Assembly: GCA_905178155.1 (NCBI GenBank)
Contig: CAJINV010000013.1
Span: 1,326,392 to 1,390,391, forward strand
Source: Amoebophrya sp. A120
Taxonomy: Eukaryota > Protista > Dinoflagellata
Direction: 5' to 3'
Length of the DNA: 64,000 nt
Shown here one piece after another: positions 5,100 to 59,160 of this stretch (the stretch's first letter is position 1; every line of letters starts with the position of its first letter). The notes under the pieces are model-generated. The model searched no databases and was not told the DNA's origin. It saw only the letters and a program-made list of their open reading frames with translations. The translations under genes were made by a program, and so were the position numbers.

Positions 5100-5690
5100 C
5101 GTACTGATGTACGATGACATTGAAGGGCCGCCTGCAATGACAAGGAAACCGCTCGAGCTGAACGGTTACCGTGCAAAGAAATATGAACTTCATTGGCACG
5201 ACTGATTTTGGTCGTCAAGTGGAATTTTGACAAGCGGGGAGCGGCAAAAACGTGATATGTGCAAGGCAAGGCGGCTTGCTAATGGATGGTCTCAGCAGTG
5301 GCCGTGAAAGAAGCGTCGTGGTTGTTCATCGCATAAGGAATACGAATATTGATATCCCCGCTCCTTGTAGTGCATCTGTACATGATGAGCCTGATCATGG
5401 TGTTGAAATACAACACCGCTCGGGAATTACTGCACCCATTTGAAGATCTAAAACTGCACAGATCGCGATCCCGCTTTTCTAGGTTCAACAATAGATGGCT
5501 CGCAGAACAAGTGCCGGCCCAGTGCGTGGCTGAGCGTGCAGAAAATATCGAGTTTCGTAGAAAAATGCCGGATTTGTTCGGTCTTTGGTACTCGGTGATC
5601 GATCGAAAGGCGCGCAGGAGATTATGCCGTGCAGCGGCGCAGTGTGCCGGATGAACTCTAAACTCGGTGTAGTTATGTAGCTATATAATT
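5100..5690. repeat. Copy 2 of the ~550-nt diverged direct repeat
   Basis: Aligns by eye to 1950-2510. Confidence 0.8.
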
Positions 5691-8800: not shown

Positions 8801-11395
8801 TTTCTGGAAGAACAACCAGAAAGCGCTAGATTTTATGGAGGACGAGTGTCAGAAAAGGCTAACTACCAAAGCCTCCGTCCAACAAGAATCCGCGACAGGC
8901 AAGGATGGGCAGCTGCGGGAGAAAAACCTCAAGGTGGCAAAGGAACTACAAAAGGACGTCGATGGTGAACACCTTGCGAACTCGAAGATATCATCGGCAA
9001 GTAGACCTCTCCGCTGCATAGACCGCATTCTGGCTATTCCGAAGAACACAGTCCCCGGGCTCCACTACGACGCGTTTGTTGAAAGAGGTGATAAAAATTC
9101 GAAGATGAGCTCCGTTCTACCGCCGCGGAATACAATTGCAGCTCCCACTGCGACCACTTCTGCCGATTCTTCCCCTCTGAAACAGCTGCTACAAGACACG
9201 TACCAAGTCATTATCCGTCAGGACTGGGACCTGCGAACTGACATTTTCCAGCACCTGCACGACTCGCACTACTGGGTGAATTTTGTCTCAAATCAAACGG
9301 CGTACGCGGTGAACATGATTTGCGACCAGTTTAAACTGTTTGTCCTTCTGCAGTTAGCGCAAGAGTACACGGCGGTTCTGACCTTGGACTCTGACTACCT
9401 GATCGTGCAGCCCTACCGGGTTCTGGAGTTTTTTGCGTTTTTGGGCAAAGACGAAAATGAGAATTTGGCGTTTATGACGCCGGAGGGGCCGCTCCACGTG
9501 TCGATGATATCGTGAGGAAAAATCCCCCCTCCCCATACCAAAAAGGGACACTGCTGAAAATTTGCGATGCTGATTTGTGGCCACAGATCGTCTCTGTATT
9601 GCAAGAAGGCCAAGCCAGAGACTCCGCCGCATTTTGCAGGCGGTTTCTGATGCTATGGGGCCTACAGAGTACACATTTGCCATGCTACGCGCCTACGTCA
9701 AAACCCTCCTACTTAGGCTTGGCATGGGCCTGCAGTCCTCTACTGCAAGACAGACCTGATTTGTGTGCCCAAGTCCAGCATTAGAAACTTCCTCTTGATA
9801 TGGGGAGGGGGGATTTCTCCTCTCAGTAGATGATGGCCGCGAGTCACGTCACGTGGCGGGCGGACCTGGCGGTGCAGGAAGCGTGGCGGAGGATCGTTTT
9901 GCGTGTGTTCGATATGCACAGCGGCACGGAACTGTTTCCACCGGCGTATGTGAAGGAACATCAGGCACTTCTTCTAGCGAGCAACAAAAATGAAAGGGGC
10001 GAACAGGAGCTAGCAGCGGAAAGCGAAGTCGTCCCTTCGCGAAGTAGCAATAGTGGCAGAAATGATGTAGAGCGGCGGGAAAAGAACGAAATGCAGAGCA
10101 CGCACTCGTCGACGCCGTTGAGGTCTTGGACGGAAAGCTACGGTCTGACGGAGTACAGGGCGCTGCAGAGAATTGCCGGACGCAGATGGAAAGCCTGGTA
10201 TAAGGAACGACAAGGGCAGCTTTTGAAGGCAGCACCAGTTCTTGGAACCGGACAGGACCTGCAGGCGGAGGAAGGCAATGATTCCCAAAAGAGCAACTAT
10301 GAGAAAAGTAGCACTACATCAACAAGTATCCAACACCACGAGCCTCCAGCAAAAATTACATTTGGCTCGTTCAGAAACTTTTGGGGCAAAGATTTCTTCC
10401 TACACAATTTGTTCGGCGTCACACCGCCGCAAATCGGCACCATTGCGTATCCGAACGCATTAGCCGCGGCTAGCACCGAAGCTGTCGTGAAAAAGCAGCT
10501 GCTCCCGATCTTCGACAGGACTGATTCAGATGATTCTACTGCGAAAGACGATCTAGCTCTACCGACTGCGGCAGGTGCTCCTCGAAAATTCAATCCGGAG
10601 GAGCTTTTCGACTACCAACATAGAAGAAAGCCATCAGGAATTATATCGACGCCCGAACACCAGGAGTTGAGCATGCTACAAGAAGAATATGCCGGAAGAC
10701 CTTCTGCATCCAAGTCGAAGCGGGTGCTGCACAGTCACGAGCACAGCGGGGTGACAGATACTGCAGAAAGTGGCGGCACTGGTAGAATTGTCGTGCGTGG
10801 ACAACATCCAACATCGACTAGCAGTGGTACAACACCAAGTCCGGATGGAAGCAAAATACAAGCCACTGCTGCAAAATCTTCGAACATTTTATTTTCTCCA
10901 AAACCGGACCTGCCCCCGAAGTTCTTCGCGCGGATCGGTCACACCCCTCACCCCGTGCCCCGGACGCACATTGGGTTCCAAACGATCAACGGGCAGAACC
11001 TGTACGGTGTGCGAACGGTCGGCGGGCAGGGGGTGACAGGATATTTGCTTGGGTTCGTCCTGCCGAATTGGGAAAGGAGGTTTGAGATGCTGGAAGAATG
11101 GAAAGACGAGGGTGGTAGAAATATTAAAGCGAAACAAGAACATGATCTCCGTGAAGACCACGCGGAACATGAGTCGGCTCCAACAAATAGAAGCAAGTCC
11201 TCGCCCACGTCGACAAGCTTTCGCCTGCGACTGCTCCCCATGTGCCGTTGGGCCTACATGGTTCAGATGGAACACGACGAGTTTCATTGCGACGGGGACC
11301 TGGGACCCCCGGTTCTCGTGCACAAGCCGGACCAGGGGCTGGCGCTGTACATGCGGAAGTGGGCGCGGTTGCGCCAGTGCAAGGTGGGGGAGTAG
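5812..11395 (+). CDS. Large hypothetical protein, possible type II membrane glycosyltransferase (exons ~5812-6539, 6893-9507, 9834-11395)
   Basis: A GT-AG intron at 6540-6892 joins the ORFs in frame. Removing the TIR element 9508-9828 plus one GATGA gives …HVSM-MAASH…. N-terminal hydrophobic anchor and AVLTLDSDYLIV (DxD) motif. Function is tentative. Confidence 0.6.
9508..9828. mobile_element. TIR introner, family B (321 nt), TSD GATGA
   Basis: TIRs TATCGTGAGGAAAAATCCCCCCTCCCCATA / TATGGGGAGGGGGGATTTCTCCTCTCAGTA. Perfect 5-bp flanking duplication. Frame restored. Confidence 0.92.
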
Positions 11396-23603: not shown

Positions 23604-25762
23604 GTGGTGTCTCGGCGAGAGGAAAGGAGAAGGAGAAAAGGGCTACTGTCGTGTCGAGCACCTCGGCACTTTTGTTGACCTTCTTTGTGTGTTTTCTACA
23701 ACAAAAACAAAAAAAACTGCCAAGTGGAGAAGGCACTTCTTCTTGATTCGCACCTTTTTTGCGATTCAGAAAAGTCTTGCATCAAGACGAGTTCAGTTGC
23801 GCAAAAAGTCAAAGCGCGGAAAGCGAAGGTTGCGTCGTCCAGTGGCAAGGACGGTTCAGCTTCTTCTTCCACTTCTGGACCTCTATCTATCGCTAAGGGA
23901 AGTAGATGTGTAAAAGTGAATTCAAAAATCGCAACTCATTGCATCATTTTGGAACCGCAATCACCCCAGTTCGTTGTACATCATATTTGGCTCCTTTCAT
24001 TTCATTTATATTTTCAACGCATGCTCCCGAGTTTTAGTTTTTTTTTTCGCGACGTTTCCTCTTCACAGTTTCCCACAAGAACTTCAGTCGGGATTTCAAA
24101 AATCGATAATCACAAGCACATACTTAGCATGTCTCTGAATTAGTTTCTGTCGAATCTCTACTTCTATGGGTAGGTCAGGCGAGAATGAACCTTTATTAAT
24201 TTTTTTCTTGGAGTTGGAAATCAAAGGCAAAACTTCTTTTATTTTTTTGGGTATTGGAAGGTGCAGGAGCCGCCTAGTTCTGTCTACGGACGATACATGG
24301 CAGTGGCTGAAAAAGGTCGCGCAGAACGTTTTCCGTGAATGCTTTATTGTGCGATTGTCTGTGTCCAAGTCCAATGGCGTATCGCCACCAAGAACGACGG
24401 CCGCGTTGATGTACTTTCTTGCAGATGTAGACCCCAGCTCTCTAAAGACTCACAATACTACTTTTATAATTCCCCGATGCTACTTGGTACTGGATCGACC
24501 GCTTCCACAGTATGACTGTAAGACACTGATCCCAGGGGACCGATCGCGTACGTGCGGTGCTGTGAGAACATGTGCAGCGCAAGCCGTACACTGTCTATCG
24601 AATGGAAGAGCAGATCTAGTTTGCAAGTTTCAAATGTACAAGACCCCCACGCCCGGATGAAGACGAAATTTTTCACCTTTCACTAGCTTCCAGTATCGAG
24701 GTGTGGACCGATGGGAGCGAGCAGACAGTATATCCGCTGTACTGTCGCTCAAGAACTACAAAACAGTCGCAGCCCCTACCAAGCGATACTTCAAAGGGGA
24801 GCGGAGCCCGCGAACCTTATCGATTGGAATGAACCCCGAGCGCGACTACAACGACATTCCATACTAGTTGAGAGCATGACTTTCGCCATATTCGGAAAGA
24901 ATCCTTCCCTTATTCCCTCGGTGGTTTTTTGATTGTCCGAGAGGATCTCTCGGCAACTATGTTAGCTAGAAAGTAGGACGGTGTTGAACTTGAAACCTCA
25001 TATCTCGGTACATGCCATGGTGACATTGACAGTAAACGCTTCACTGCACGTCGGTAGATCAGAAACAGTTTGACTTTGCTAACGTCGGTATAAAGGTAAA
25101 CGGCGCAGAATGAAAATTCCGCGTGCCTCGCTCACGACGTGCATCGGCTCTTGATTCTTGTTGCGAGTACACAATGAGCTCGGTACGACCACAATCGCAG
25201 GATTCGTCAGCGAGGTTGATGTCATTGGACGTCGTGCGCTCAGGAGTCAGAGGAATTTAGAACGATCTTTCGCCTTTCTGAATCTGAAGGATTTGTACCT
25301 GCCTTTTTCTCTCGTGAATTTCAATTTGCTTAAAATTGCTTCTTACAAGCTTAGGCGAGCATAGTTGCGAGGATCTTGAGACACACAGAAGATCCATCGA
25401 TCTTGATCCTTCTCACCTCACTACGCCTCCGTGGTTGTTTCGCAATCTTTTCTTGTTCACCCATGCTCACCATACTTTTACCTTTTCCAGTCAAATGTCC
25501 AACAATGAAAAGCGCTACCCAAAGATAATTTTTCGAAATGACAAGATCAAGAAAATTCGTCGTAGAAGCATGTGTCTAGTAGATAATTCGCCAAGAGTAG
25601 TCTTTTGCGTTTTATTAGTCAAATTACCATGTTCGATGTGATAGTACAGAAGTCGTTTTCTGCTTCTAGAACACTTTCCCAGGGTGTCCAGAAGGCTGTA
25701 GGCCGATACGATATTGTTGAACTAGTAGAGCTCCATTTGTTCTTTTCGAATTCACCACGACC

Positions 25763-28700
25763 ATGTCCTCGGCCAAGTCGCCTGCGCTGAAGCGACAAAA
25801 GCTAGACCCCGCCGGCGCCACGACAAAAACAACGCAGAAAAGCCCAAGGGCACAGCAATTAAATTCACAAGCGCAAAATAAACTACTGCGAGAAACAAAG
25901 CCGAGTGGAGCCGGGAAGCTGCAGGGGCCCGGTAGTGCTGCGGCCTCCCCCCGCGCAGCGCTGGCGCCGCGAAAGAGCAAGATGGATGGGAATCCAGCAG
26001 CAACCACCGGACGCGCTGCTGGCGACGAAAAAGAAGGAGAACTTCTCGCAACTACGACAGAGAACCAGCAGCACACTTCTGCAGTGCAGCTTTGTTATCC
26101 ATTGGACAGCACGAGTAGAGACGAGGAAGACGCACTGCTCGTGGGATTACAAAGAAAAGACGGTCCTTTTCTCTTGTCCGAGGATGGAGTATTAAAGATT
26201 TCAAACGACAGCACGACGTGTCGCACTTACGCCGAGTTTTCCTACCCCATTGAGAAGACGAAGGCAAGTCTGGACAAGAATGAATACCGGCACATTCGCA
26301 TGCATAACGGCATCCACGCAGTGCTGGTCTCGTTGAAAAATGAGGACGAAGATGAGGAAGCAGTAGCAGGCAGAGGTGAACAACAAGCGGAAGATGAAGT
26401 AGAGCACACTGGACGAAATCATGATGCTGGTCCTGCTGCCGTTGACGGTTCATCACTGGCTGTAAAAAAATCCGGAAATAATGATAACCCGCCGGTGCCG
26501 GCCTCCCCTTCCAAAGGCAGCGACGCGGCGGACGACGTGAAGGCGGCCTGCGCCGTGTCGGTTGGGGTGGGTCAGTTTTCGGACCCGGCGGAAGCCCAGG
26601 GGATCGCGCACTTCTGCGAGCACATGCTCTTCATGGGCTCCAGCAAGTACCCCGGGGAGAACGCGCACGAGCAGTGGCTCACGCAGAACGGCGGGTACAG
26701 CAACGCCTTCACCGAGTGCGAACAGACAACCTACTACTTCGAGTGCGACAACGAGGGCTTCGAAAAGGCGTGCGACATGACGTCGCAGTTTTTCATCGAC
26801 CCGCTGTTTGAAAAGGACGCCGTGGAGCGGGAGATTAAGGCGATCGAGTCCGAGTTCCGGCTGTCGCAGAACAGCGACCAGACGCGGATCGACCAGGTTT
26901 TGGCGCACTTGTGCACCAAGGGCCACGTGTATAACAGCTTCGGGTGGGGCAACTGGAAGTCCTTGTGGGAAACGCCGCTGGAGGAGAAGAAAAACGTCTA
27001 CGAGTTGGTGAAGAAGTTTTACCGGGAAGAGTACCTCACTTCTCGAATCTCGGTGTGCCTCGTCGGCTGCATGCCGCTGGATGAACTGGAAAGGTGCCTC
27101 AGAAACTCCTTCGGACAAATCCCGAAGAGGGAGGGTGCAGGAGCAGCAGCTCGTGGTGAGCAGCAGGGGCAGGAGGTATTGCCGTCTAGTAGTACAACCG
27201 CCGCAAAAGTAGAACAGATGGTCAAGAAGAACCCTGCGACAGAGGACGAACCACCACGGACATCAAAAATGGGCATGAAGAAAGCGCCACCTGTAGCTGC
27301 AGGTCCGTCCTCCTCCTCCGCTACCACTAATGGGAATAACAGCCACGACCACCAAAACGACTCGGACGCCGCAAAAACCCGAGCTGCACTACTCTCAGCA
27401 AAAACACCAATTGCGAAAAAGCAGGTTTTTTTCCCCCGCAACCCGTTGCTGCCCTTCTCCTACCGGAAGGACCCGCAACTTTCATCCTACCCCCCCATCA
27501 AGGATTCCGAGTTGCCCATGCTGCTGCGGCAGAAGCCCGTGGCGGACACGCACAAGCTGTATCTGGCCTGGGTTCTGCCCCCGATCAAGGACCCGAAGCA
27601 TCTGTTCTATCAGCACCCGTTGGAGATCATCAGCTATTGCATCGGCCACGAGTCGAAGGGGAGCATCTTGGAGTACCTGAAGCAGAAGCACTACGCTACG
27701 TCGCTGGCCGGGGGCCAGGGGCAGAGCGGGTACGAGGATAGCAGCATTTGCACCATGTTCACGATCGAGATCGGGTTGACGAAGAAGGGGTTGCAGCACT
27801 GGGACGAAGTGGTCGAAATCGTGTTTGCGGGCATGGAAATGATTCGATTGGAGTTCGAGAAGCTCCACGGCGAACTTTCCGACAGTGGAGCGGAAGGAGA
27901 GCAGATTCATCCTGTTGCTGGACTAAATGATGGCACTGCATCTTTGAAAAATAATAAAACGGGTGGAAATGTTAAAATGAAGCGCGCTTCGCTCAAGGAG
28001 AAAGGCGCGAATAATTCGACAAAAGTCGCTGTCGCGGTGGACACGAAATCTTCCACGTCGAACAAAAGAACCAGCGCAGCAGCAGCTACTGGAAATGCCG
28101 GTGCCGCCCAGGAAGAACTACCAGAGCAGCAGCAGAAAATAATAAATCGGCCTTTGTCCAAGCTGCACCAGATTTACGCGGAGGCACGACTGCTGAACAA
28201 CCTCGAGTTCCAGTTTTCCGAGGAGGAGCGGGGCATCGAGACCGCACAGCGCATCGTCGCGACGCTAGCCCCGTTATCAACTGTAAAAATGTCTGGGTCT
28301 GGAAGAATTGATGTTTGTCATGCTTGTCTGGCATGACTCTTAAATCTGTCATGCACGTTACCCAGGAGCTCTGTTTTTCTGTGATGCAGAAACGCAGTTT
28401 GTCATGCAGAATAGGCAACACCTAGAAGCTCAGAAACTTGTCATGCTGGGCCAGCATTTTTGGCCTCATCATGAGACGCTACCCAGCATCACAAGTTTCC
28501 AGACCCAGACACTTTTACATTTGATACCCGTGCTCCGGCATCCGCAAGTGCGACGTGCTGACCGGGGCGTATTTCTTCCCCGAAACGTATGGGAATGTCA
28601 GGATCGAAATCGACAAAATCGAAAAATTTGTAATGCATAAAATGTAGGGCACGCATTACCTGTGTTGGGGAGCAGGCAAATAAGACCGATTACAAGCCTG

Positions 28701-31700
28701 TTTAGGGGAAGACGATATGCTGCTAGAGTAGCATGACAGGAGCAGTCTTTTTGCTCAAACAGCATGACAGACTGAGTTTTGTTGCTCTCGAAATTTGTCA
28801 TGCGCCACTTAGAAACTGAGGCTCCAACTGGTATAGATTTTATGCATCACAAATTATTTCGATTTTGTTGATTTCGATCCTGACACTTCCATAAAACACC
28901 GGATTTGGAGCTCGCGTACGAGTATTTCAAGCAAATGAGCATTGACCGGTGCATTCTCGGGATTTTGTCCTCCAGCTACGGCCAGGCTGTTCGGAACGAA
29001 GAAGAGGAGGACGACGAGGAGGGCGTATCAAAATAAAAAATCCCTCCACCCCATATCCAAACGAAGTTTGTGATGCTGGATTCGCGTACACAAATCAGAT
29101 TTGTCTTGCTGGAGAGGAGTGCGCCCCATACCAAGCCTGAGCAGAGAGGCTTTGGACTAGGCTTTTGGCATGAGAAACGTCTGCGCTATAGGCCCAACAG
29201 CATTGCAAATCGCCTGCATAATGCGGCGCAGCCTGTGGAGTTGCATTCTTGCAAGACGGAGATGATTTGTGGTCGCAAATCAGCATTGCAGATTTTCTGC
29301 GACGTACCTTTTCGATATGGGGAGGGGGGATTTTTCCTCACAATAGGGCGACAATTCTGACGACGAAGATGCTGATGCGAAGCAGGACAATAAATCTATT
29401 ATAAAAGAGGTCGCGTCGTCGATCCAGAAGCGCAGTTCTCCTCGACAGAGCGATGTTGGAGGTTGTGCGTCCGGTGCAGTGATCAACATCCCGAACCGGC
29501 CGCGGAGTCGCAGCTGCCAGCAAGCCGTGCCGACGCCGCACAACGCGGCAGGCCGCAGGCTGTCGAAGCACGGCAGCATGCATAGTTCCGACGAGGATTT
29601 GTCCAGCGATTCTTTATCGGATGAGGAGGAGGAAGAGGAGGACAGCGTGAGCATGTCCGCTGAAGGAATAATAAATCCTCCAGCTGGTCGTGGGTCGCGG
29701 GCTCCTGTGTCGGAGATGAACAAGGTAGGTCCAGCACCGAAGAGGAAAAACAAAAAGAACTTGCCGCGAAATTCGGACGCTGAGCCGGAGCAGGAGGAGG
29801 AACTGTCAGATGAAGATGCCTCCCGGATGACGGTTCGGTCCGCCGCCACCTCCCGCACAAACGCTGCGCACCGAAAAGCGAACGAAAAGCTCGACCCCTG
29901 GCTGCCGCTCGGCGGAGCGGCGGGGCTGGATTGGGAAGTCGAGCCCTACTTCGAAACGGAATTTCACAAGTCCGAGATACCCTTCGTGCTCCTCAAAAAC
30001 TGGCGCAACCGGGACTACCTCCGGAAAAAGTACTTTTTGGGCGGAAATGAGAGTAGTTCTACTACAACGGGCACAACAAAAGTAGACAAGAATACTGCAT
30101 CTTCCTCCGACGTCGAAATGCTGACGCCCCGTGGAGGTGGTGATACTTCTAAAGTTGCACAGCCGCACCATCCGCGGATTCATTTTCCGCCCGCAAACCC
30201 GTTTCTGCCGAAGGATTTTCGGTTGCTGGAGCCCGAGGACGGTAGTCGCGCAGAGAGTAGTAAAGCGGGAGCAACTGCCACTGGTAACAAAACCAGCGGT
30301 CCCGCTGCGACAAGTAGGACAAAGAGAAATTCTGGGAACAATGCAGCGGGAAGTTGTAGTGCCACGCATCTTCAAACAGCCTCAGGAAAGAATGCGTCTG
30401 CTGTCGCACTCGCGGGGAAAGACGCGCTTTCCTTCACGCCCCCCAGCTTGCCGGAAGGACCATTGGCCAAAAGTCTCAGGTTGAAGGACGACAGTGTGTC
30501 TGGTCCTGTTGCGGTCGATGAAAACACGACAGGAAATAATGATGGCACGAGTGCGATCATGAACAGTCATAAAGCCGCGAAAAACACCATAAACGCCAAG
30601 AATAGCAAAACCCCCGCGACGAGCGCCATTAAATCTGTGAGCAATCCACCGTCCCCTCCTGCGCAAACGGCATTGCACACCCTGATTAGTCAGCAAATCG
30701 TCGAGAAGCGGCTGGAAGTGCCAAGGCTGTTCGAGAAGAGTGAGGTCTGCCAGCTCCCGGACCGACTAATATCCCGGTTCGAGAAAAAGACGAAGAAGAC
30801 GGCACAGATTTTGCTCCACACCGTGACCGTCGGAGGAGCATCGGACAATAAAAAAGCTGCAACTACAAGTGCTCAACAGCAGGAGCACCAGCAAATCCTG
30901 ACGCCCCTGTACCGGTTCTACTCTTTCCACAAGCACTTTGACATGCCGAAAACCCACGTTTTCCTCCGGCTGTACCCGACCTTTCACGACATTCTGTCGA
31001 CCATCGATTCGGTCTGCCTTACCTGGCTGTGCCGCACGCTGGAGGACCGGCAGAGCGACATCGCGTACCAGGCGGACACTGCGCAGCTTCATTTCTCCAT
31101 CACCTCCGCCATGGAGGGGTACCTTGTGCTACATTTCTGGGGCTTCAGCGAGAAGCTCGCGGACCTGATGCGTGCGGTTTTGGGGAACGTGATGCGCTTC
31201 TGTGGGGACTACGGACTGAAAACGCCGGGGATGTTGTGCGCTAGCAGGACAACTATTTCTACAGGCGGTGCCCAGACTGGTGGAACAACATCAAAGGCAG
31301 CCAATGCAGGAGCAAATTCATCTACTACAGCGCTGAACAAACCACCAATAGATAATAAAGAACAACTCCACGAGCACGCGGGAGAGCTGTTACACACCGA
31401 CGGCCGCGTGGAGGCGATTCGGCAGAAGCTCGCCCGCAAGTATGCGAACGCGAATCTCGACGCGTCTTCGCACTCCGACCGTTTGCGTCAGGAGCTGTTG
31501 GTTGCTAGTTGCCACGACCTCGAGGCGCAAGTGGCTTTCATCGATCCGCAGTGCGAGGAAGAGGCTGATAGTGTCGCCGCTGTTGGCAGTAGCAAAACCG
31601 CGAACCAGCCCGTGGACTTCAAATCTCTGTTGACATCAACATTTTTGCCCGGAGGTGGAACTTCATCTACAGAGGGAATAAAGGCATTCGCGACAACCAC

Positions 31701-33687
31701 GACGGCCTTGAAAAGTGGAGCAACAACGGCGGGCAATCATAAACTCAACCCTCCGCCGCGTGTAGGAACAATGAATGCGACCAATTCGTCTCATAACAAT
31801 CTCCTCCCCGTTCCAGGACCTTCGCCAAATTTGATTCCGCAGCACAAACAGACGACGCGGGAGCGGTCATCAAGTAAGACGCAGGTTAACAAAGACAACC
31901 CGAAGCTTATTCTGAGTAAAAACGTCCCCATCCCAGAGTTGTCATGCAAATCTGCATGCCAAAACCGTTTCTCATGCAGAGCCCCATGAGAAGCATTTTC
32001 TATTCGTATTTGGAAATTTCTGATGCTAGAATCAGCATGATATGCTGTATCTGTGACGCTTCTGATCTAGCTAAACAGGATTACACTACAAAGACGAACT
32101 TGTCATGCGAAACAACCAAAGCTGTTGGATTTGTATAGCAGATTTCGCATCTTGACTCTGGTGTGGGGACGTTTTTACTCAGGATAAAGCTGGACGAGAC
32201 GTACGCGAAATTCGCGGAATATGCCGAAAGGTTCTTCTCGCTTTTCTATCAAATGTAAAAATGTCTGGGTCTGGAAGGGTTGGAACTTGTGATGCAAACT
32301 CTGGAACACACAAAAATTTGTGTTGCATGAGCGCCAAAAGCTGTCCATTTCTTGGCACGCAAGTAGGAAGTTTCTCATGCGGGACAGGCATCATGAGGCG
32401 TGCTCAAAACCTGTGATGCTTTTGCCTGCATCAGACGCCATTTGCGTGATCCGAAATATGCATGATAAATCTCGCAATCTTCCAGACCCAGACATTTTTA
32501 CATTTCATATTTTCCGGATTGACATGCTGATTGAGGGAAATTTCGACACCCAATTGCAGACGGCGGTCGCAGATCTGGTGAAGGCGGAAACCGGCTGCGG
32601 CACGCGGACGTTGTCGCCCCAGGAACAGAAAATGTTCACAATCGTTGGTAGTGGAACGACTTCTACACCTGCGGAAACCTCAGCAGTTACCGCGGAAAAT
32701 AAGAATGCGACGACAAACAACTTCCAGAGCGATAACAATAAACATCATCAGCTGCAGCTCACCCCCGCGGAGCAGTTTCTGCAGCACTACCCCATCCACT
32801 GCAACTACTGCCAGAAACTGCCGAAGAACACGACGCTGCTGACCGTGCAGCCGTCCGCGGACGCGAAGCAGAAGAACACCGTGATCACGCTGTACTACCA
32901 GTTTGAGCGGACCAGTCCGACGCTGTCGGCCGCGAACGAGTTTCTGCAGGACCTTTTATACGAGCCGATGTTCAACGAGCTGCGCACGAAGCAGCAGCTG
33001 GGCTACAGTGTGAACTGCGCGATCCGCGACACCTACGGGGTGGCAGGGTTTATGTTTACCATCTGTTCCTCGAGTTTTGACTGCGTGTATTTGTTGGAAA
33101 AGTTGCTGAAGTTCATCCACGAGTTCGACTTGGTAAAGGAGCTCGGGGAGGAAGCGATCGAGCAAGTGCGGCACAACTGCGCGAAGAAACTCTTGGAGCC
33201 CTGTCGCAACTTGACCGACTTGGCCGCCCTCCACTGGGGGTGCATGACGGAAACGCGGGCCCCGCGGTGGCAGCACGACCGGGAAATTGCGTACTCGCTG
33301 AAGCACGCCGACGTGGTCGGGTTGTGGAACCAGATCCGGAACTTTGGGCGGCGCACGGAGAAACAAAACTCGCTACTGAACGGACGAATTCTGACGGTCG
33401 TGTTGTCTGAGAAAACGGAAAAAGCGAAAGCAAAACTGGAACAGAAACTGACCAAGCTGCTTACGACAGCAAATAACAGTACTGTGAACGTAACAACAAG
33501 AAGTGGTGAAGGCGCAGTTAGTGCCACAACATCTACTTCACGCAAGCTGGAGAAAGAGCAGAGTCAGACCTCCGGGCCCGCACAGCTGAAAGTAGTTAAG
33601 TATGCCGAAAGTCGAAAGTTTTGGCGCTTGAAAAAAAGCCGGGAAGTAGGGGCGTTCTTCCATCCCGGCGACCTGTTGCTTCATTGA
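25763..33687 (+). CDS. M16A metallopeptidase (insulysin/nardilysin-like), ~2159 aa, 6 exons
   Basis: HXXEH motif (GIAHFCEHMLFMGSSKYP), NAFT, GHESKGS, EPMFNELRTKQQLGYSV, and an acidic insert near the N-terminus. Exons 25763-28274, 28532-28587, 28899-29025, 29351-31907, 32192-32246 and 32515-33687 sum to 6480 nt (a multiple of 3) after removing five TIR elements, each plus one TSD. Confidence 0.9.
28275..28526. mobile_element. TIR introner, family A (252 nt), TSD CCCGT
   Basis: TATCAACTGTAAAAATGTCTGGGTCTGGAA / TTCCAGACCCAGACACTTTTACATTTGATA. Perfect TSD. Confidence 0.93.
28588..28893. mobile_element. TIR introner with ~55-nt TIRs (306 nt), TSD AAACG/AAACA
   Basis: TATGGGAATGTCAGGATCGAAATCGACAAAATCGAAA… / …TTTCGATTTTGTTGATTTCGATCCTGACACTTCCATA. 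Confidence 0.92.
29026..29345. mobile_element. TIR introner, family B, reverse orientation (320 nt), TSD GGGCG
   Basis: Its left arm is the reverse complement of the right arm of the copies at 9508, 43463 and 56902. Perfect TSD. Confidence 0.92.
31908..32186. mobile_element. TIR introner, family C (279 nt), TSD AAGCT
   Basis: TATTCTGAGTAAAAACGTCCCCA / TGGGGACGTTTTTACTCAGGATA. Perfect TSD. Confidence 0.92.
32247..32509. mobile_element. TIR introner, family A (263 nt), TSD TTTTC
   Basis: TATCAAATGTAAAAATGTCTGGGTCTGGAAG / CTTCCAGACCCAGACATTTTTACATTTCATA. The junction restores FFSLF-RIDMLIEGNF. Confidence 0.93.
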
Positions 33688-40025: not shown

Positions 40026-43000
40026 CCGGTCGCCCGGTATCCTACAGAACAGCACACCCACGGTACCAATTGCGCTGCAGTTTCTATGTAAGAAAAAAGC
40101 TGCTTTGTTTTGTTCAGGATTACAAACCTGCTTAGTACCTCTCTGATCCCTTTTCTGCATTAATACAGTGCTTAAAGATAAAAAACTCAAACTGAAACAA
40201 CACACGCCTGGGATTATGGAAGAAGTGTGTTCATATTTTGTAATTGCAGTAATGCATTTGCATGCCGATGCAAGGATCAGCGTGGCAAAGTTTTTTGTGG
40301 TGCCATAAAAACAGCAACACAGATTCATTTTCTGTTGGTATGGGTGTGCTTTCCTCTTGGATAGCCGGGACCTAGGTTTCGAGTGTACGCGGCTGCGGTC
40401 GTCTGCCATATGCATTGCAAATGTGTCTGGATCTGGATGGCTGCAACTTGTGATGTTGCTGACTGTGGATTCTAGAAAAATCTGTATTGCATGACCAGCA
40501 ATACAACGAGTCCAGTTTGTGCTACGCGGAGAGGGCATTTGTCATGCGGAATAGGCATCAGGAACGCGTCTAGCAATCTGTGCTGCTAGGTCATGCATTA
40601 CAGGCATCCTGGGTCATGCAAAATATGCATGACAAGCCTTGCATCCTTCCAGACCCAGACATATTTGCATTTGATATGCTAACCGCCTTGCCGCGAGAGA
40701 TCAACGAGAGCAGGAAAGCGGACGCCGGCCACGACGAATCCAACGTCAGGTATAATGAAAAATCGTAGAAGGGAGTCTTCTATTTGTAAAGATTCCGGTT
40801 GTGTGGAGTTAGACGCAGAAGTCGTACTTTTACTATCTACGAACAATCAAACCTCAGCTTGGACCCGATGTATACTGTGCATTTTACAACAGTTTTGACA
40901 TCATCACTTGTCGGCGCCGTGCTATTGGGCACTATCTGGAGCAGTAATCTGGAGTGTAGAGTTTTCGCATTTCATGGGTGATTCTTCTTAGTACTACTAG
41001 GTAACGCCAGCAGTAGGGGCCAAGCAGCAAGCGCTCACGGCACCGACGTCCTGGGCGGATGAAACAGGTGCGTATAATAGTACCATTCCGTTTGAAACGG
41101 GTTCGACCACATGCAAGATAAGTTTTTTGTCGCAGGTTTTTGTGCGCGCATTTTTTATTGCCGGATTCAAATGCATCAAAAATAAAAAACTTAAATGTGT
41201 AAAAAAAGCATTAAGCGTTTTAATTCATTTACAGTCGATAATCACGATGCGGCGTCGGACGGCAGGCAGCATTCGGAGGAAGCGCGAGGATCAGCAGCAG
41301 CTGATCCGTTCCCGCCGGATTATCAAATGCAAACAGGTCTGGGTGAAGAAAAATGCGTATCATACAAGAAATGGTCTCAAATGCCCGCAAAAGCATTGGA
41401 GGTTTAGCGTAGGTCTCTGGATGCCTTTCCCGCATGAACAGTGCGCTATCTGCGTTGTAGCAGAAGATGGGCAACTGTTGGAATGCATGTGGTATGCAAC
41501 ACTCAGAGAATTTTGTGTGATCCCGAATTTGCATCAAGGACAGACGTATTTGCAATGCATATTAAGGAGCGTCGATCCCCATCCCCAGCTCACAGCGCGG
41601 CCGCGACGGTTGGCAGTTCCGAGCACAGCAGCAAACAATCTCGGTCGGGTTCTCGGTCCGCATCCCCAGCGCACAGCGCGGCCGCGACGGTTGACAGTTC
41701 CGAGCACATCAGCGAACAATCTCGGTCGGGTTCTCGGTCCGCATCCCCAGCGCACAGCAGGGCCGCGACGGTTGACAGTTCCGAACACATCAGCGAACGA
41801 TCTCGGTCGCGTTCTCCGCACTTCGCACGTGCTACGTGAGACAAAAAAGCCGGCGAGTCATGTTTGCAATGAAAAAGAAAAAAACCAAAAAGCAAAGAAA
41901 AACTGGCATGGGCAAACCTGCAGCGTGCTGCTTCAGGCATGTAAGACAGAAAAACCTGGCGTGGGCAATCCTGCAGTGTGCTGCTTCAGGTAGGTAAGAC
42001 AGACTCTTTTGTGTATTTATTTTTGCATTCGTAAGTAGACAGACTCATTGTAGTTGTTCATTGTTCATTTACTGTTGCATTGCAAATGTCCCCCGGCGCC
42101 GGCTTTTACTCTAGGATAATTGTCCAGCTTAGCGCCGTGCATGATCGTGTCCGTGACGGTCCTGCACCGCCGTTGTATGCAGTGCAAGTAAAAAGTCTGG
42201 ATCGGGATGAGTGCAACGTGTGATCATGCTTCCTGTAGGTCATAAAGATTTAGAAATCTGTTTTGTACGAAAAGCAAAAGCTACTCAGTTTTTGCGACGC
42301 ACACGCAAAGTGTGGACAATTTCTTATGCGGTATATTCACAAATTGTCCGACTAGCACTAGGTCCTCAGGGGAACTTCGACCCACCCAGCCGGGTGGGCC
42401 TTAGATCCCCTGCCCAAAAAATTCGGTTATGAGTCCACCACCGCTAAAAGTTAAATTATGAATCCACCCCAAGAATGAGCTCATTGATTTTTTGGGCAGC
42501 AGGGGACCCAAGGGCCAAGGCCCACCCGGCTGGGTGGTGCGAAGTTCCCCGGAGGACCTAGTTGAGCAATTTGTGACCCTCCTCTAAGCATTATGTTTCG
42601 AGCCGAGCAATTAGAAGTTATGCTAGATTCTGCATCAATAAGCCAAACCTTGCGAGCCATGGAAAAATCTGCATCGCAAAGACCTGCATTCTTCCAGACC
42701 AAGACATATTTGCAATGCACACGCTGCAATTATCCGCTGGACTGTCGACGGCTCTTGCCCGCGGCACGTTCTCCCCGAGCCAGGTCCAACGCACAGAAGA
42801 CTCCAGTACAGCCAGCCGCGTGGCGGTCGAGGACCCCCAGCCGTACATCTTCCGAATCCGTGCGTCGCCCATGGGGGAATGGGTTGAGCAGGACGATCAC
42901 ACGCGCATGTGGGATCTGCAGGTACCGTTTCACGAGTTGACATGCGTGTGCACGTTGGCGCTCTGTGGTTCTTCGTCCGGAGGCACCACCCCAGGGGGCC

Positions 43001-46000
43001 GTGTTGTTGCTCCGCGTCAGCCGGTATGTGTTGCAAATATGTCTGTGATGTCCTCTGGGCGAAAGAACTAAACTTGTCATGCTTGTCTGGCATGACTCTG
43101 AGGTACTACATTTTGGTGCAAGATCACGAAAAGATTTTTTTGCTTGTCATGTAAGAACGCAGTCTGCCATTCGGTGCCCCCATTACTATTCGCCGACTAG
43201 CATAATTACAGACATATTTGCAATGCATAGCAGGAAGGCGAACGAGATCCCCCGGCGCGCATGTACAAGCTGTGCTCCAGTCCGGTGGTGATCGACTGTA
43301 AACTGCGGGAGCCCCAAAAAGAATCCGTTCCTCCCCCCGGGGATTTGTCGGGACTTGGTTGGCGGTGCACTAAAATGTCCCAGTTGCGGCTGAATAGCAC
43401 GAGCTCGTCAATTTTCCCCGGCATCCCGCTGGACCGCGTCGCGAAGCTCGCTGTGGACAAGGTATCGTAAAGAAAAATCCCCCCTCCCCATATCGAAAGC
43501 GTATCCGTCTGAAAATTTGCGATGCGCATTTGCGACCTCAAATCCTGTCTGTCTTGCAAGAAGGCAAGTCCAGAAAGCGTTTCGCATTTTGCAGGCGGTT
43601 TGTAATGCTGTTTGGCTTAGAGCATACACGTTTGTCATGCTAGGCGCCTACGTCAAAACCTCTCGACTGAGGCTTGGCATATGCCTGCATTCCTCTACTG
43701 CAAGACAAATCTGATTTGTGTATGGAAATCCAGCATCAGAAACTTCGTTTCGATATGGGGAGGGGGGATTTTTCCTTTCGATACAAGGGAAAGGAGGTTT
43801 ACACGCTACCACACTATGGAGGGAAAGTGCGTGATTTTCCCGGCTGCTGCTAGCTCTAGAAGAAAAAAGCCAGCTGGTCGTGCGAGTTTTCCCATAAGGC
43901 GCTTCTGGTGATGCAAAACGCTAAAGCAAAAAGCACACCAAGCCGCATGGAAGTGAGTGACTTTCATGGAGATAAGTGATATATAATTTTTGGCGTGCTT
44001 TTTGATTTTGCATGATGTAGCAAATCCGCATGACAATTTTCTCAGGGCTAGCATCACTCCCGAAGATCGTTCATTTTCCCGCTATACACCAGAAGGTGCG
44101 GACACGGATAGCGACTCGGAGCCGCCGTCTGGCCTCCAGACGCCCGGTCAGGAGGAAGATCATTCGGGTGATGACGCAGATCGTCCAACCGGCGGACGGC
44201 GTGGGCCCGAGCAAGCGACGAGCCTGGCCCGCGCCGCAAGGAGGCTCCTGAAGCCGACACAAGTGGCTTTTCCGCTGTTCTGTTTCAGTGACAAGTTTTT
44301 GAAGCAGAAGCCGTGCGTGGTCTCCGGGCAGCACGGGACGCGACTGATTTATCAGGACCAGCTGCGGAAATACAAGGAGGCACGGTTCTACGAGAAGCAC
44401 GCAACGAATGTTCCGAATTGGCAGGCCATCTACTTCGTTTCCCGTCTGCGGTTTCCGGATACAACTACCAGCACGAGAGGACGAGATATGGGAGTGCAGA
44501 ACCTCCCTCCCCCTCGTTCTTTGTGCTGCAGAATCAATACAAAGTCTACACCTTGCCTTGAAGCACTCTCTGCATGCTAAATTTTGAAACCTTAAAAAAC
44601 GCCAGCACTTCTGTCCGTGTGGAGATTTGTCGTGCGGAAGCCACATTGACATTGATTTCTCCCGTTGTTTGTGTTGCTACTCACGCCGTTCGTATGAGGG
44701 GAAGAGGGAGTTGTGCAATCTCATACGAGAGCCGTCCACGACGCAAGAGCCCCTCGTGGAAACGCTTGTCATTTGTGACGGAAATTTTCAGCTGCAGCCC
44801 TACTGTCCGGCGGTGTCGCTCGGGGACCCACAGAGGGCACTACCTGCTTCGGGCCAAGGAACCAGTTCTCTACAGGACCCGGAAGACGACGATGCCGACA
44901 TGGAGCAGCTTATTCTGCGCTGGCGGCGGTTCACCGTAGACCCGGAGGAGAAAAACGACGAGCTCCGGTGGATTAAGGCGGACCTGAGGGTTTTTCTGGA
45001 GGATCTGCGTCAGCACCAGAACGGGGAACAGGACGGCGGTGCTGCGATCGACTGCGTCCATCCCGACGCGTGCTTTTTGCACTGGAAAACTGAAACGGTC
45101 GTGCATGCCATGGACGGCTGGAAGGACCTGTACCTGTCGAAGAGCTCCGACTGCGTGGTGGGCCGAACGATCAAAAGCATCTGCCAGGAACAACTGCTAG
45201 CTTCTTGTTCCGATGAAGTTGGGTCGACCACGACGGCTGGGGGTTCCACTTCCTCTTCCTCGGGGATGGAGCAATCTGCGTGTGAACAACGACCTTCCGC
45301 ACCAGCACGCCCGTCGAAGCGCCTGCGCCGTTTCCGGCCCCGGAACGAGCGGCTGCACCGCATTCACACGGAGCCGCCGAGTCCGCTCATTTGGAAGAGC
45401 CGCAAGTTTTGCGACGGGCGGTCTAAGCCTCGTACGAAGACAGCGCGGCGCAGTGCGCTGCACTGGAACGACCCCGAGTTCGTTTCAACGCGGTTTCGGG
45501 AGGAAGCCGCGATCACCGCCCAAGCCACCGCCCGGTTCGACAGCCAAAACATCCGAATGCCGCTCCTGAGGGGCGCCAGTAGCGTGGTTCCCCGCGCTAT
45601 CGCCAGGAAAAACTGTTTCAGTCTCAACTTTGCAGGATCAGCAATACAAGTTTGATCAGCATGACACGGAAAACCCGTGATGCGTAAGACACAAGAGCAA
45701 GCTCATAGGAAAGACGACTTTCTTGCATCTCGAGCATGAAAAAAACTTCCTGAAGGAACTTGCGCATTACAAGTTGAGACTGAGACAGTTTTTTCTCACG
45801 ATGCGCGACCGTGGAACAAGTCCCGCTTCGTCGCCAGCAACTGCTGCAGGACAACCAAGAAGTAGGACAACTACCGGTGATGATCCGGAAATACCGCAGC
45901 GTCATCTCTGTAGTATCGACGTGGCTATTGTTCCCGTCGCGTGCGGGGCGAGGACGGGAGAGGAGCCCATCTATCCTGTGTAACAAGGTCCCCACCTCGC

Positions 46001-55691: not shown

Positions 55692-58600
55692 ATGTCGGAC
55701 GACGAAGCTGAAGTGAAGAAGCGGGCCGCTAAGCCGAGCTCCGACGATGACGAGTCGTCTTCCGACGACCTGGGCCCCATGCCGGCCCCGGAGAAGCCGG
55801 GAAAGGAGGAGAAGAAGAAGAAGAGAAAAATCATGAAAAACGAGAAGCTGTACCAGGAAAACTTGCCAAAGTCGCAGATGTACGAGAAGTCTTTTATGCA
55901 CCGGGAACCCGTGCGGGTGATCTGCACCTCGACGGATTGTGACTTCGTCGTGACCGGCAGTGAGAAGGACGGCATCGTGAAATTCTGGAAAAAACAGCAC
56001 CAGGGGATCGAATTTGTCAAGCTGTACCGGGCGCACGCGCTATCCTTGCTGCACATGACTTTGTCCGCCAGTGACGGGCGAAATTTGGCCACGGTCGGTG
56101 TGGACTGCCAATTTGACGCAAAAGGTATTTTTTTTACTACGAGAGTTTATGCGTATCAATCAATCTTGTGATCCGGGGTCGTGTTTAATATTCCGAACAT
56201 GTTTGAAAATGGATTCTACAACTTCTGCCCAGGCAGGTCCTTACAAGCTTTTTTTCCACGTAAACGCATTGATGCCGATGCGTACTTCTCTATAAACTAT
56301 TATGTTTGTATAGCATGAACACCAAGAAACTGCACGAAACTCATCTCCAGGTAAGCCCATCGCGTCCTCGCGTACCTGCGCTCTGAAATATTTTGACGTG
56401 GCCAATTTCGATCTGTCTCAAATGATCAAGTTGGACTTCGTCCCGCTGGTCTGCTGCTTCGTCAGCCGGAAGGAAAAAGCGGACGTGAGAATCGCCGTCA
56501 CGGATCAGAACTCCGGCGCCATCCGGATCTTCAGTCAGTCGCAGTATTACAGTGAAAAATGCCCCCTCCCCATATCAAAACGGAAATCTGTGATGCAGAT
56601 TTGTGGTCACAAATCAGCTTTGTGATGCTAGAAGGCAAAAGATGCGGACTGTAGTGCTGTCTAGCGTGGGAAAGCCTTGCAGCTCCAGGATGACAAAAGG
56701 CAACTGGAAGTGGGAAACAGCATGACAGATTAACTGCGATTTAGGCCGCAGCTTCGTTTCTTGGCCTTCTAGCAATACAAGTTGATTTGTGTACTCAAAT
56801 ACAGCATCACAAGTTCGCGCATCTTTCGTTTCCGATATGGGGTGGGGGCTTTTTTCACTTTGATACGCAGTCCCAAGTGAGCCAGAAACCTATTCTCGAG
56901 TTATTGTGAGGAAAAATCCCCCCTCCCCATACCAAAACGGGATACTTCTCAAAATTTGTGATGCTGATTTGAGGTCACAAATCGTCTCTGCATTGCAAGA
57001 AGACAAATAAAAAACCCCGCCGCGTTCTGCAGGCAATTTGTAATGCTGTCTGGCCTACAGAGAACGCCCCTACCTTGCTAAGCGCCTACACCAAAACATC
57101 CCTAGTCCGGCTTTGTATCTGTCTGCAGTCCTCTACGGCAAGACAAAGCCGATTTGTGTACACAAATCCCGCATCACAGATTTCCATTTCGATATGGGGT
57201 GGGGGGATTTTTCCTTTTGATACGAGTTCACGCAGCGGCACCAGCACCCGATCTCCATCCTGGAGTACCACCCCGCGCTGGACATGTTATCAAATGTAAA
57301 AATGTCTGGGTCTGGAAGATTGGAACTTCAACTTGTCATGCTAAATCTGCAGCATGCAAAAATCTGTGTTGCATGATTGCCAAAAGTCGTCCAGTTTTGA
57401 CCAAGTCGGGAGGGAGTTTCTCATGCAGGAGAGGCATGAGAAAGGTCCCGCAGAGTCTGTCATGCTAGGTCTTGCATTCCAGACCTCATGGGTCATGGAA
57501 AAGCAGCATGACAAATCGCGCATTCTTCCAGACCCAGACACTTTTACATTTGATACATGTGCCTGTCGCACGATAAAAAGGGGTTTCTGGAACTCTGGGA
57601 TCCCGAGACCGGGAACTGGCCGAGTAGCGGGACCAGCCAGCAAACGGGGGAGAAGCGGTTAGACCGATTTGACATGAACAAACCCGTGAAATTCAACCGT
57701 CAGCTGCTCAAGTTCAAGTCAAAGACGGACGGCACGGATCTGTACGAGCTGAACAAAAAGCAGACCTCCGCGGTATCGCTCAAATTCAGCCCGAACGGCG
57801 AGTACTTCGCCATGCTCTGCTTGGATGAACGGGTCCGGATCTTTCGCACAAGAACCGGAAAGAAGTTTCTCGAACTCGACGAGGCCGTGGACCAGTTGAC
57901 GATAGCGCAGAACGACCCAGCGCAGCGCATTTTGCACCTGGACCACTTTGACTTCGGGAAACGGGTGGCGGTCGAGCGAGAACTGAAAAAGTCGCCCTGC
58001 TACCAGTGGCAGTCGCTTTCCTTCGACGAAAGCTCAAATTATTTACTCTACCCGACCCTGTGCGGCGTGAAAATCTTCAACCTGACATTGCGGAAACTGG
58101 AGAATTTGCTCGGAAAAGTGGAGTCAACAGAAAGGTTTTTGCAGTGCGCGTTATTTCAGGGGAAAGGACAGAAGCGGATGGTCGGGGCGAGTGAGGCACT
58201 CGCTGGGAATGCGTATTTGTTGATATAAGATTTTTGCTTTTCTGCTTCTGCATGTTCAAATAGTATATGTTTGAGTTGTGGGTCAACATCCATTTCAATC
58301 CTGATTTGTGTTTGTTCAGTTGGTCCGGATTTGTGTGAGCCTGACGATGCGTGCTGCAGAACGTTTCTGCAGAGTAGCTGTTCGGCGCGAGCAATACAGG
58401 TGCACGACGTGCTGGTGCAGCACTCGTGTCGAGGGCAGAGCAGGCGAAGTGCAATATAATTTTTAGCTGAAAAGAATAAACTGTCAAACACTACAGCCCC
58501 GGCCAGCAGCTTGAAACCGACCCTACTCTTTTCGCGACGTCGTTTCGCAAGAACCGGTTTTTTCTCTTCACGAAGCGCGACCCCGAGGACGATTTGGGGG

Positions 58601-59160
58601 AGGACGAAGTGGGGCGCGACGTCTTCAACGAGCTCCCCTCCAAGGAGGAGCAGGCCCTCGCGGTCTCGGCCGCGGACACGGTGCGGCTGGGCCGCGAAGC
58701 CATCATATCCACTTCGTTCGGCGACATCGTCATCTCGCTTTTCTTCAACGAGTGCCCGAAGACGGTGGAAAACTTCTGCACGCACGCGAAGAACGGGTAC
58801 TACAATAATCTCCGGTTCCACCGTGTGATCAAGGGCTTCATGATCCAAACCGGCGACCCGCAAGGCGACGGCACCGGTGGGGAATCCATCTGGGGCGGCC
58901 ACTTCGCCGACGAAATTCGGTCGAATCTGCGGCACGACAGGCCGTTCACGGTGTCCATGGCCAACGCCGGACCAAACACCAACGGCTCGCAGTTCTTCAT
59001 CACCACGGTAAATTGCCCGCACTTGGACCGCCTGCATACCGTGTTCGGCCGGGTGGTAAAGGGGGAAGAGGTGGTCTCCCGGATCGAGCGGGTAGCGACG
59101 CGAGTGGACGATAGACCTGTGCAAGATGTGCAAATGATGTCCATACAAGTCACCGGATGA
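55692..59160 (+). CDS. PPWD1: Peptidyl-prolyl isomerase with WD40 repeats (PPWD1/CYP71 orthologue), 6 exons
   Basis: [55 protein letters not shown], and a cyclophilin domain with [27 protein letters not shown] and [17 protein letters not shown]. Four TIR-type introns and one GT-AG intron (58213-58496). Confidence 0.93.
56109..56374. mobile_element. Old non-canonical intron of probable introner origin (266 nt), TSD ACTGC/CCTGC
   Basis: Removal plus 5 nt gives [17 protein letters not shown], matching the PPWD1 pattern. The TIR is barely recognisable. Confidence 0.55.
56545..56865. mobile_element. TIR introner, family B variant (321 nt), TSD CGCAG
   Basis: TATTACAGTGAAAAATGCCCCCTCCCCATATC / GATATGGGGTGGGGGCTTTTTTCACTTTGATA. 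Perfect TSD. Confidence 0.92.
56902..57222. mobile_element. TIR introner, family B (321 nt), TSD CGAGT
   Basis: TATTGTGAGGAAAAATCCCCCCTCCCCATA / TATGGGGTGGGGGGATTTTTCCTTTTGATA. Perfect TSD. Confidence 0.93.
57288..57555. mobile_element. TIR introner, family A (268 nt), TSD CATGT
   Basis: TATCAAATGTAAAAATGTCTGGGTCTGGAAGA / TCTTCCAGACCCAGACACTTTTACATTTGATA. Perfect TSD. Confidence 0.94.

Follow-up and report, generated by a model that had tools for sequence, protein, structure and literature searches.

Exact removal from RNA of introners lying in both orientations in a 64-kb stretch of the Amoebophrya sp. A120 genome

Introners and host genes of the window

We analysed a stretch of 64,000 nucleotides (nt) of Amoebophrya sp. 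A120 (contig CAJINV010000013.1, positions 1,326,392 to 1,390,391 of the forward strand; hereafter the window, numbered from its first letter) in which genes are interrupted by dispersed introners, and we show that these elements are removed exactly from RNA, together with one copy of their flanking repeat, in both orientations. The dispersed elements are 205-326 nt in length, start with TAT, end with ATA, carry inverted repeats of about 25-37 nt at their termini and are flanked by 5-nt direct repeats. This anatomy was already described in A120 by Farhat et al. 2021 (PMC7789003), hence we considered the elements of the window as known introners. Precisely, the text of that paper gives for A120 inverted repeats with TAT, seven variable bases and at least three A, direct repeats of 3-5 nt, non-canonical borders and a likeness to MITEs, the miniature transposable elements with inverted repeats. 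Terminal inverted repeats are there of 8-20 nt or more, to be compared with the arms of about 25-37 nt found here; the direct repeats agree at 5/5 positions in seven RNA-confirmed copies and at 4/5 in the one at 28588, and the elements belong to repeated families (131 further copies for family B) with non-canonical removal (eight joints without GT-AG). As for MITEs, the elements are short, have inverted repeats and a fixed-length target duplication, lie in either orientation and hold no coding frame.

The introners with RNA joints lie in two genes, both with long + frames and Pfam matches. Five of them interrupt a gene for an M16 (insulinase-type) peptidase (25721..33687, +; Pfam), whose spliced frame has 2173 codons and zero internal stops: a family A1 introner at 28275..28526 (252 nt, TAT…ATA, CCCGT on both sides, no GT-AG register), an unrelated family C introner at 28588..28893 (306 nt, repeat AAACG/AAACA, 4/5), a family B introner at 29026..29345 (320 nt, repeat GGGCG), a family D introner at 31908..32186 (279 nt, repeat AAGCT) and a family A2 introner at 32247..32509 (263 nt, repeat TTTTC). 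The second gene (55692..59160, +; Pfam) encodes a WD40 and cyclophilin protein of 677 amino acids, which we take to be PPWD1-like, and is interrupted by two GT-AG introns and by three introners, namely a family B-like one at 56545..56865 (repeat CGCAG), with a divergent interior that leaves its orientation not callable, a family B one at 56902..57222 (repeat CGAGT), opposite in orientation to 29026, and a family A2 one at 57288..57555 (268 nt, repeat CATGT). The spliced product is identical to a protein (P0001) named Amoebophrya sp. A120. The placement of the host genes on the + strand, as given in the initial annotation, agrees with a codon model, for which three window genes served as the training set and which favoured this strand in 20/20 tiles. 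The short exons between neighbouring introners (28527-28582, 32187-32241, 56866-56896 and 57223-57281; 31-59 nt) are retained in RNA. The introners at 56545 and 56902 have similar repeats, which could mis-pair over the exon between them; the main contig removes each separately.

The orientation of the copies was called from their alignment in the two senses. The copy at 29026 had been described as inverted relative to the family B copies at 9508 (9508..9828, 321 nt, GTA end in place of ATA, repeat GATGA), 43463 (43463..43783, 321 nt, repeat CAAGG) and 56902, and this was borne out by full-length reverse alignments of 78.7%, 79.3% and 75.9% identity, respectively. In fact, with 40 nt taken off each end, the interiors gave reverse scores of 198, 215 and 153 and forward scores of 36, 30 and 33, the shuffle maxima being at most 26. 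The same holds for the inversion of 28275 relative to the A1 introner at 62330..64000 (187/235 nt of its two halves match in reverse; score 172 vs 55 forward). The latter is not a simple copy: a nested insertion of about 1.43 kb (62480..63907, flanking repeat ATGACAGGC, with a (GAT)n run at its end) splits the A1 element in two halves, and its right end is outside the window. By its letters, the insertion may be a truncated retroelement without long terminal repeats. For the third pair, 40409..40676 (family A2, repeat 4/5) and 41321..41561 (a decayed family A2 copy), the inversion was found but it is weak (41 vs 15 forward, shuffle maximum 23), and it is clearer between 41321 and 32247 (57 reverse vs 21 forward). 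We considered 41321 as a poor orientation example because it has no direct repeat (0/5) and one stop-free frame. Precise removal can read GT..AG at 43463 and, judged from the sequence, would fuse two + frames into one of 1441 codons at 9508.

Removal from RNA in both orientations

Removal was read on assembled complementary DNA (cDNA) contigs of the runs X3, X4 and X6, which represent two samples of one study and were classed as RNA by contigs without GT-AG introns, not by their record; a second X3 contig lacks three GT-AG introns, hence X3 is spliced RNA. All five introners of the M16 peptidase gene are absent together from one 7106-nt contig of X3, with no differences in the pieces listed. 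The X3 joints are 28269>28527 at 28275 (257 nt skipped, that is 252+5), 28582>28894 at 28588 (311 nt skipped, with the fifth base of the downstream repeat copy retained) and 29019>29345 at 29026 (325 nt skipped, that is the element and one repeat), with 284 nt skipped at 31908 and 268 nt at 32247. For the WD40-cyclophilin gene, the joints of X3, X4 and X6 skip 326 nt at 56545, 326 nt at 56902 and 273 nt at 57288. The skip is thus equal to the element plus 5 nt at all eight joints, and a GT..AG, GC..AG or GA..AG reading is possible at 0/8 of them in any equivalent register. A usable GT-AG at 29026 had been raised as a caveat in the initial annotation; this pair (29025-29346, 322 nt) would keep the frame but was rejected, since the assembled form differs from it, with a joint of 325 nt and not 322 nt.

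Two contigs of 12.3 kb (X3 and X4) pass at 62329 out of the window and into sequence that is not of the element, hence the inverted, insertion-bearing introner at 62330 is also skipped, with its far border outside the window; a joint spans the insertion at 62480-63907 with other letters in between, which come from other copies of the family. The RNA contigs therefore show the removal in both orientations, as claimed from the sequence alone, for the pairs 29026/56902 and 28275/62330. Among the X3 joints listed, none falls at 40409, 41321 or 43463; RNA coverage of the copies at 40038-46589 was patchy or nil, with zero X3 depth at 41008-42341, and this negative weighs neither for nor against their removal. 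The 1.43-kb insertion lies inside a copy that is still skipped in RNA; introners may shelter other mobile elements.

Reverse transcriptase can jump at a hairpin between direct repeats, and the joints could be jumps of this kind, produced on the cDNA and not in the cell. The anatomy of the introners is of the jump-provoking kind, and the RNA evidence consists of cDNA contigs, without efficiency or strand. However, all eight RNA-confirmed elements have stops in the three + frames, so that conserved genes need their true removal; moreover, the spliced WD40-cyclophilin protein is collinear with three relatives over the junctions (net gaps of 0-4 residues), five elements are gone from one contig, and a copy of 1.7 kb is skipped. 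We considered this explanation very unlikely.

The elements could also be missing at the DNA level, either by an empty allele or by programmed DNA excision, which would be expected to be independent of orientation and to retain one repeat. The DNA control, run X1, covered 55000-64000, and contigs drop rare forms. In this region, however, the DNA-like X1 contigs cross the exon-element borders, with none of the joints of 56545, 56902 and 57288 among the joints listed, and a short, low-depth contig of X6 retains the end of 56545. Furthermore, RNA contigs join element ends to other flanks, hence elements are transcribed in place. A loss at the DNA level is likewise very unlikely.

As regards the remaining runs, the raw reads of X9-X11 matched only the ends of elements and a single further short stretch (35-134 reads each). 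At 32476-32510, about 86 raw RNA reads of X9, apparently of another strain or locus, carry a family A end that runs on into different sequence, an unspliced copy in RNA. In X4, contigs with loose ends of 255 nt join the window at 59395 and 57880 from elsewhere.

To extend the analysis beyond the window, the end motif of family B was used for a scan, which returned 136 loci. Nearly all of them belong to the public assembly with prefix JACKZZ01, and the longest matches to the window, among the matches listed, span elements only. A generic finder gave 304 elements in the window and in the loci of at least 1.4 kb (0 matches in 198 kb of shuffled loci), 210 of them with a host-strand call and 94 without; loci of less than 1400 nt were omitted from the counts of frame restoration and of changed ends, and at the other loci the coding and orientation calls have a sequence basis. 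Exact removal opens a coding frame over 132 of the 210 elements with a host-strand call (124/132 at other loci, the codon model being circular for the 8 window copies), whereas leaving 1 or 2 nt in opened it only at 3 and 3 elements. Hereafter, these 132 are the coding copies. Divided by family, they were 8/15 forward and 16/30 inverted for B (p 0.15), 9/19 forward and 9/12 inverted for A2, and 9/14 forward and 1/3 inverted for A1, where the A1 and A2 sets may overlap. A stricter pass for family B, which dropped 56/131 copies (repeat below 4/5 or flanks below 300 nt) and then 36/75 without orientation or host call, gave 7/14 forward and 14/25 inverted coding copies. One contig (JACKZZ010018566.1, loci L034-L037) holds at least six family B-type elements of mixed orientations in about 7 kb.

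Other repeats were also found in the window. Other elements with TAT ends, imperfect in their ends or repeats, lie in a gene for which RNA gave no usable coverage, at 40038-40363, 43025-43229, 45598-45803, 45972-46297 and 46374-46589. A different element of 206 nt (42357-42562), with inverted arms of 46 nt (93%) and ACTAG…CTAGT ends, not TAT…ATA, lies inside a decayed family A copy (42176-42722). A repeat pair at 2023-2260 and 5168-5416 (79% identity, same orientation) was missed by the inverted-repeat finders, and there are arrays of tandem repeats (19/82 nt and 81 nt) and two nearly identical stretches of 68 nt, 1033 nt apart (52047-52396, 41572-41814, 51389-52489).

Signals at the element ends and a candidate mechanism

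The RNA joints show that the element ends suffice to mark introners for removal. The interior is irrelevant, since members of the unrelated families A-D are removed alike, the insertion in 62330 does not prevent its removal, and the identity between orientations is near that of shuffles beyond 35 nt from the ends. Precisely, over the last 35 nt of family B, read on the sense strand, identity is 82% between orientations, 87% for forward vs forward and 47% for shuffled sequences; between 35 and 65 nt it is 54% between orientations, 78% within one orientation and 49% shuffled.

From the removal in both orientations, the initial annotation had suggested that splicing is guided by structure, with the terminal stem as the sole orientation-invariant signal. 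The removal itself stood, as above described. The step from orientation to structure did not, since the inverted repeats give the RNA ends nearly the same sequence either way; in such an element, independence of orientation does not tell structure from sequence. The motif TAT-N7-AAA was found at the 5′ end of 113/132 coding copies, at the 3′ end of 112/132 and at both ends of 104/132, counts into which the TAT/ATA is built as a requirement of the element finder; given this and the 82% likeness of the terminal 35 nt, a sequence code within the repeats is as invariant as the stem. The RNA-confirmed copy at 28588 is an exception to this motif. The removal signal is thus confined to the element ends and may be sequence, stem or both.

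On the side of structure, three copies were folded against shuffles, with z scores from -6.05 (28275) to -7.63 (56902), and in each of the 10 window copies that were folded the predicted pairing at positions 11-30 was 0.89-1.00. The stems expected from the initial annotation are predicted to be stable in both orientations, but the outer 10 nt at 29026 are not part of them: positions 1-10 have a predicted pairing probability of 0.00, and yet this copy is cut exactly. The termini of 9508 are likewise predicted unpaired, and positions 4-7 are paired in only 42-59% of coding copies.

On the side of sequence, the precise cut can be read as GT..AG in 7/132 coding copies and as GT/GC/GA..AG in 16/132, so that a GT/GC/GA donor with an AG acceptor, as in Aureococcus and Polarella, is not the rule here, 43463 being one compatible case. 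Nine RNA-supported ordinary introns start with GTA in 9/9 cases and with GTAT in 6/9. If the cut falls 1 nt ahead of TAT and 4 nt past ATA, exactly the element with 5 nt is lost and TAT comes to lie at donor +2 to +4; this register reads GT..AG at 43463 and is compatible with the imperfect repeat of 28588. AG was found at repeat positions 3-4 in 18/132 copies vs 6.8% in flanks (p 0.004, uncorrected, with four positions examined). Single TAT or ATA changes occur in three coding-called copies, and changed ends were 4 vs 4 at the sense 5′ and 3′ ends (170 host-called of 245 elements), which are too few for a comparison.

As background, the text of Farhat et al. 2021 (PMC7789003) gives more than 60% of Amoebophrya introns as non-canonical and the spliceosome proteins as nearly complete, with U1 small nuclear RNA (snRNA) not found and no matching transposase reported for A120; in the text of PMC12787238, a U1-70K homologue is noted in strain A25. 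We propose, with a probability of about 0.5, a relaxed spliceosome for which the stem brings the ends together and the end sequence, shared by both, sets the register. A DNA transposase that acts on either strand would insert the MITE-like introners; their inverted repeats would supply both ends with the same short code and fold into a stem, predicted at about positions 11-30, which would bring the ends close, and the TAT/ATA ends with the duplicated bases would set the cut register. One such register, with TAT at +2 to +4, matches the ordinary donors of this genome. A relaxed spliceosome is the likely, still putative, catalyst.

A number of results weigh against this proposal. In the arms, G·U vs A·C pairs on the sense strand were 167 vs 160 when 30 nt were counted (p 0.39) and 67 vs 98 when 15 nt were counted, the latter in the wrong direction for a selection on RNA-level pairing. 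The compensatory changes between arms that were looked for did not appear, with covariation above shuffles (p <0.05) at 1/30 positions in 79 family B copies and nine double changes in all. Arm pairing was alike in coding-called copies (81.4%) and in the other copies (80.9%), a set that includes short exons. G before TAT was not enriched (47/132 vs 30.5%, p 0.12), its mirror C being more so (p 0.011), and the mirror of the AG signal was also somewhat raised (CT in 9/132 vs 4.4%). No branch-point motif common to both orientations was found among the 132 coding copies. A1 copies in coding sequence are skewed in orientation, 9 forward vs 1 inverted (p 0.02, for one of three families tested). Finally, a frame-keeping GT-AG pair was found on the sequence at most 9 nt away in 42/132 copies (7/9 inverted A2 and 3/16 inverted B), and cryptic GT-AG sites might be used at these copies. 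As for the pairing tests, they fail to support the stem and do not exclude it, because their power is low for young copies and the way in which the copies were found limits them: the pattern of the family B scan held positions 11-30 constant in one arm, and the finder demanded pairing at 15 of 24 positions.

Among single branch motifs, TACTAAC, a branch-point motif, was found in 0/132 copies and YTRAY in 27/132 vs 23 in a mid-element control; the nine ordinary introns show no clear branch motif by eye. GCAT(C/G)AC was considered as a common branch site (46/132 near the 3′ end vs 22 in the control) but was rejected, being found in 0/15 forward B copies.

The strong form of the structural claim would have the stem alone cut by a non-spliceosomal machine, with a circular product, as proposed for the nonconventional introns of euglenids. 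The eight joints devoid of GT-AG, the stable stems in both orientations, the removal of unrelated inverted-repeat sequences, the lack of a branch motif, the single TAT/ATA changes tolerated in three coding-called copies and the euglenid precedent are all consistent with it. However, it does not fit with the exact cut at 29026 despite termini predicted unpaired there and at 9508, with a cut that falls in the direct repeats and hence outside the stem, with the lack of G·U bias and of covariation, nor with a TAT-N7-AAA common across families; even in Euglena, as stated in the text of published work, a short sequence motif is needed. We consider a stem acting alone unlikely.

It is equally doubtful that the sequence acts alone, with proteins or snRNAs reading the end motifs and the hairpin as a by-product of transposon anatomy. 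The ends are 82% alike between orientations, TAT stands at the +2 to +4 of an ordinary donor, the tests of selection on pairing were negative, and Polarella introners are described, in the text of published work, as working either way with ordinary sites. Against this, the motif is short, is missing at one or both ends in 28/132 copies and in the RNA-confirmed 28588, and the acceptor dinucleotide varies freely; moreover, the correct ends are paired exactly over the exons of 31-59 nt that separate neighbouring elements, which would be easier to explain with stems.

Besides the relaxed spliceosome that we prefer, we considered a bolder and improbable possibility, a "transposon eraser" acting at the RNA level apart from ordinary splicing, which would recognise inverted-repeat stems of the TAT…ATA type without exception, whichever their strand. 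Such an eraser would cut in the duplicated target and restore the pre-insertion message whatever the interior (up to at least 1.7 kb). With it, insertions into exons, in their tens of thousands, would do almost no harm, and it would be convergent with the nonconventional splicing of euglenids.

Comparison with known systems

With these results, the question of non-canonical splicing in A120 is narrowed to a signal confined to the outer 35 nt or so of each end and to the 5-nt repeat, which works both ways and depends neither on the interior nor on GT or AG. The pairs 29026/56902 and 28275/62330 are ready for its test. Introner pipelines that accept the same orientation only, as in the methods text of PMC12130899, may split or undercount these families.

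The symmetrical stwintrons of fungi (text of PMC8469720) are also internally symmetrical, repeated introns, but they differ in that they are spliced by standard U2 splicing at ordinary sites and are functional on the coding strand. Closer to the present case, the introners of Polarella and Aureococcus are described as transposon-derived introns with target duplications and either orientation; precisely, in the text of Roy et al. (bioRxiv 10.1101/2020.10.14.339549), several classes of Polarella glacialis and Aureococcus introners work either way, often with a bias. Unlike the elements of A120, they use GT/GC/GA and AG supplied by the element or by the duplication, a reading available here in 16/132 coding copies.

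The nonconventional introns of euglenids (texts of PMC11282704 and PMC12501133) share with the present elements the non-GT-AG borders, the terminal pairing, the junction repeats and a suspected MITE origin. They have CAG/CTG at set distances and circular products, whereas the ends in A120 carry TAT/ATA and an A-run, and the two lineages are unrelated. In fact, the first 18 nt of each end here read TAT(C/G/T)…AAAAA, with no CAG consensus at +4 to +6.

The closest system is that of the A120 introners themselves (PMC7789003), with which the elements of the window share the TAT inverted repeats, the direct repeats, the non-canonical borders and the hairpin model, proposed there (text and legend of Fig. 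4) to join the exon ends. The elements and the hairpin model are, hence, already published. In the text, legends and supplement text of that paper, figures apart, element orientation is not treated and "orientation" is used only for gene blocks; our literature search, for which subscription papers were mostly outside reach, returned no statement on the orientation of Amoebophrya elements, and the texts of PMC9860276 and PMC12130899 treat orientation in the methods only. Compared with Farhat et al. 2021, what is new here is a modest but useful addition, namely that the pre-insertion sequence is restored exactly whichever the orientation, and that an introner is removed over a nested insertion.

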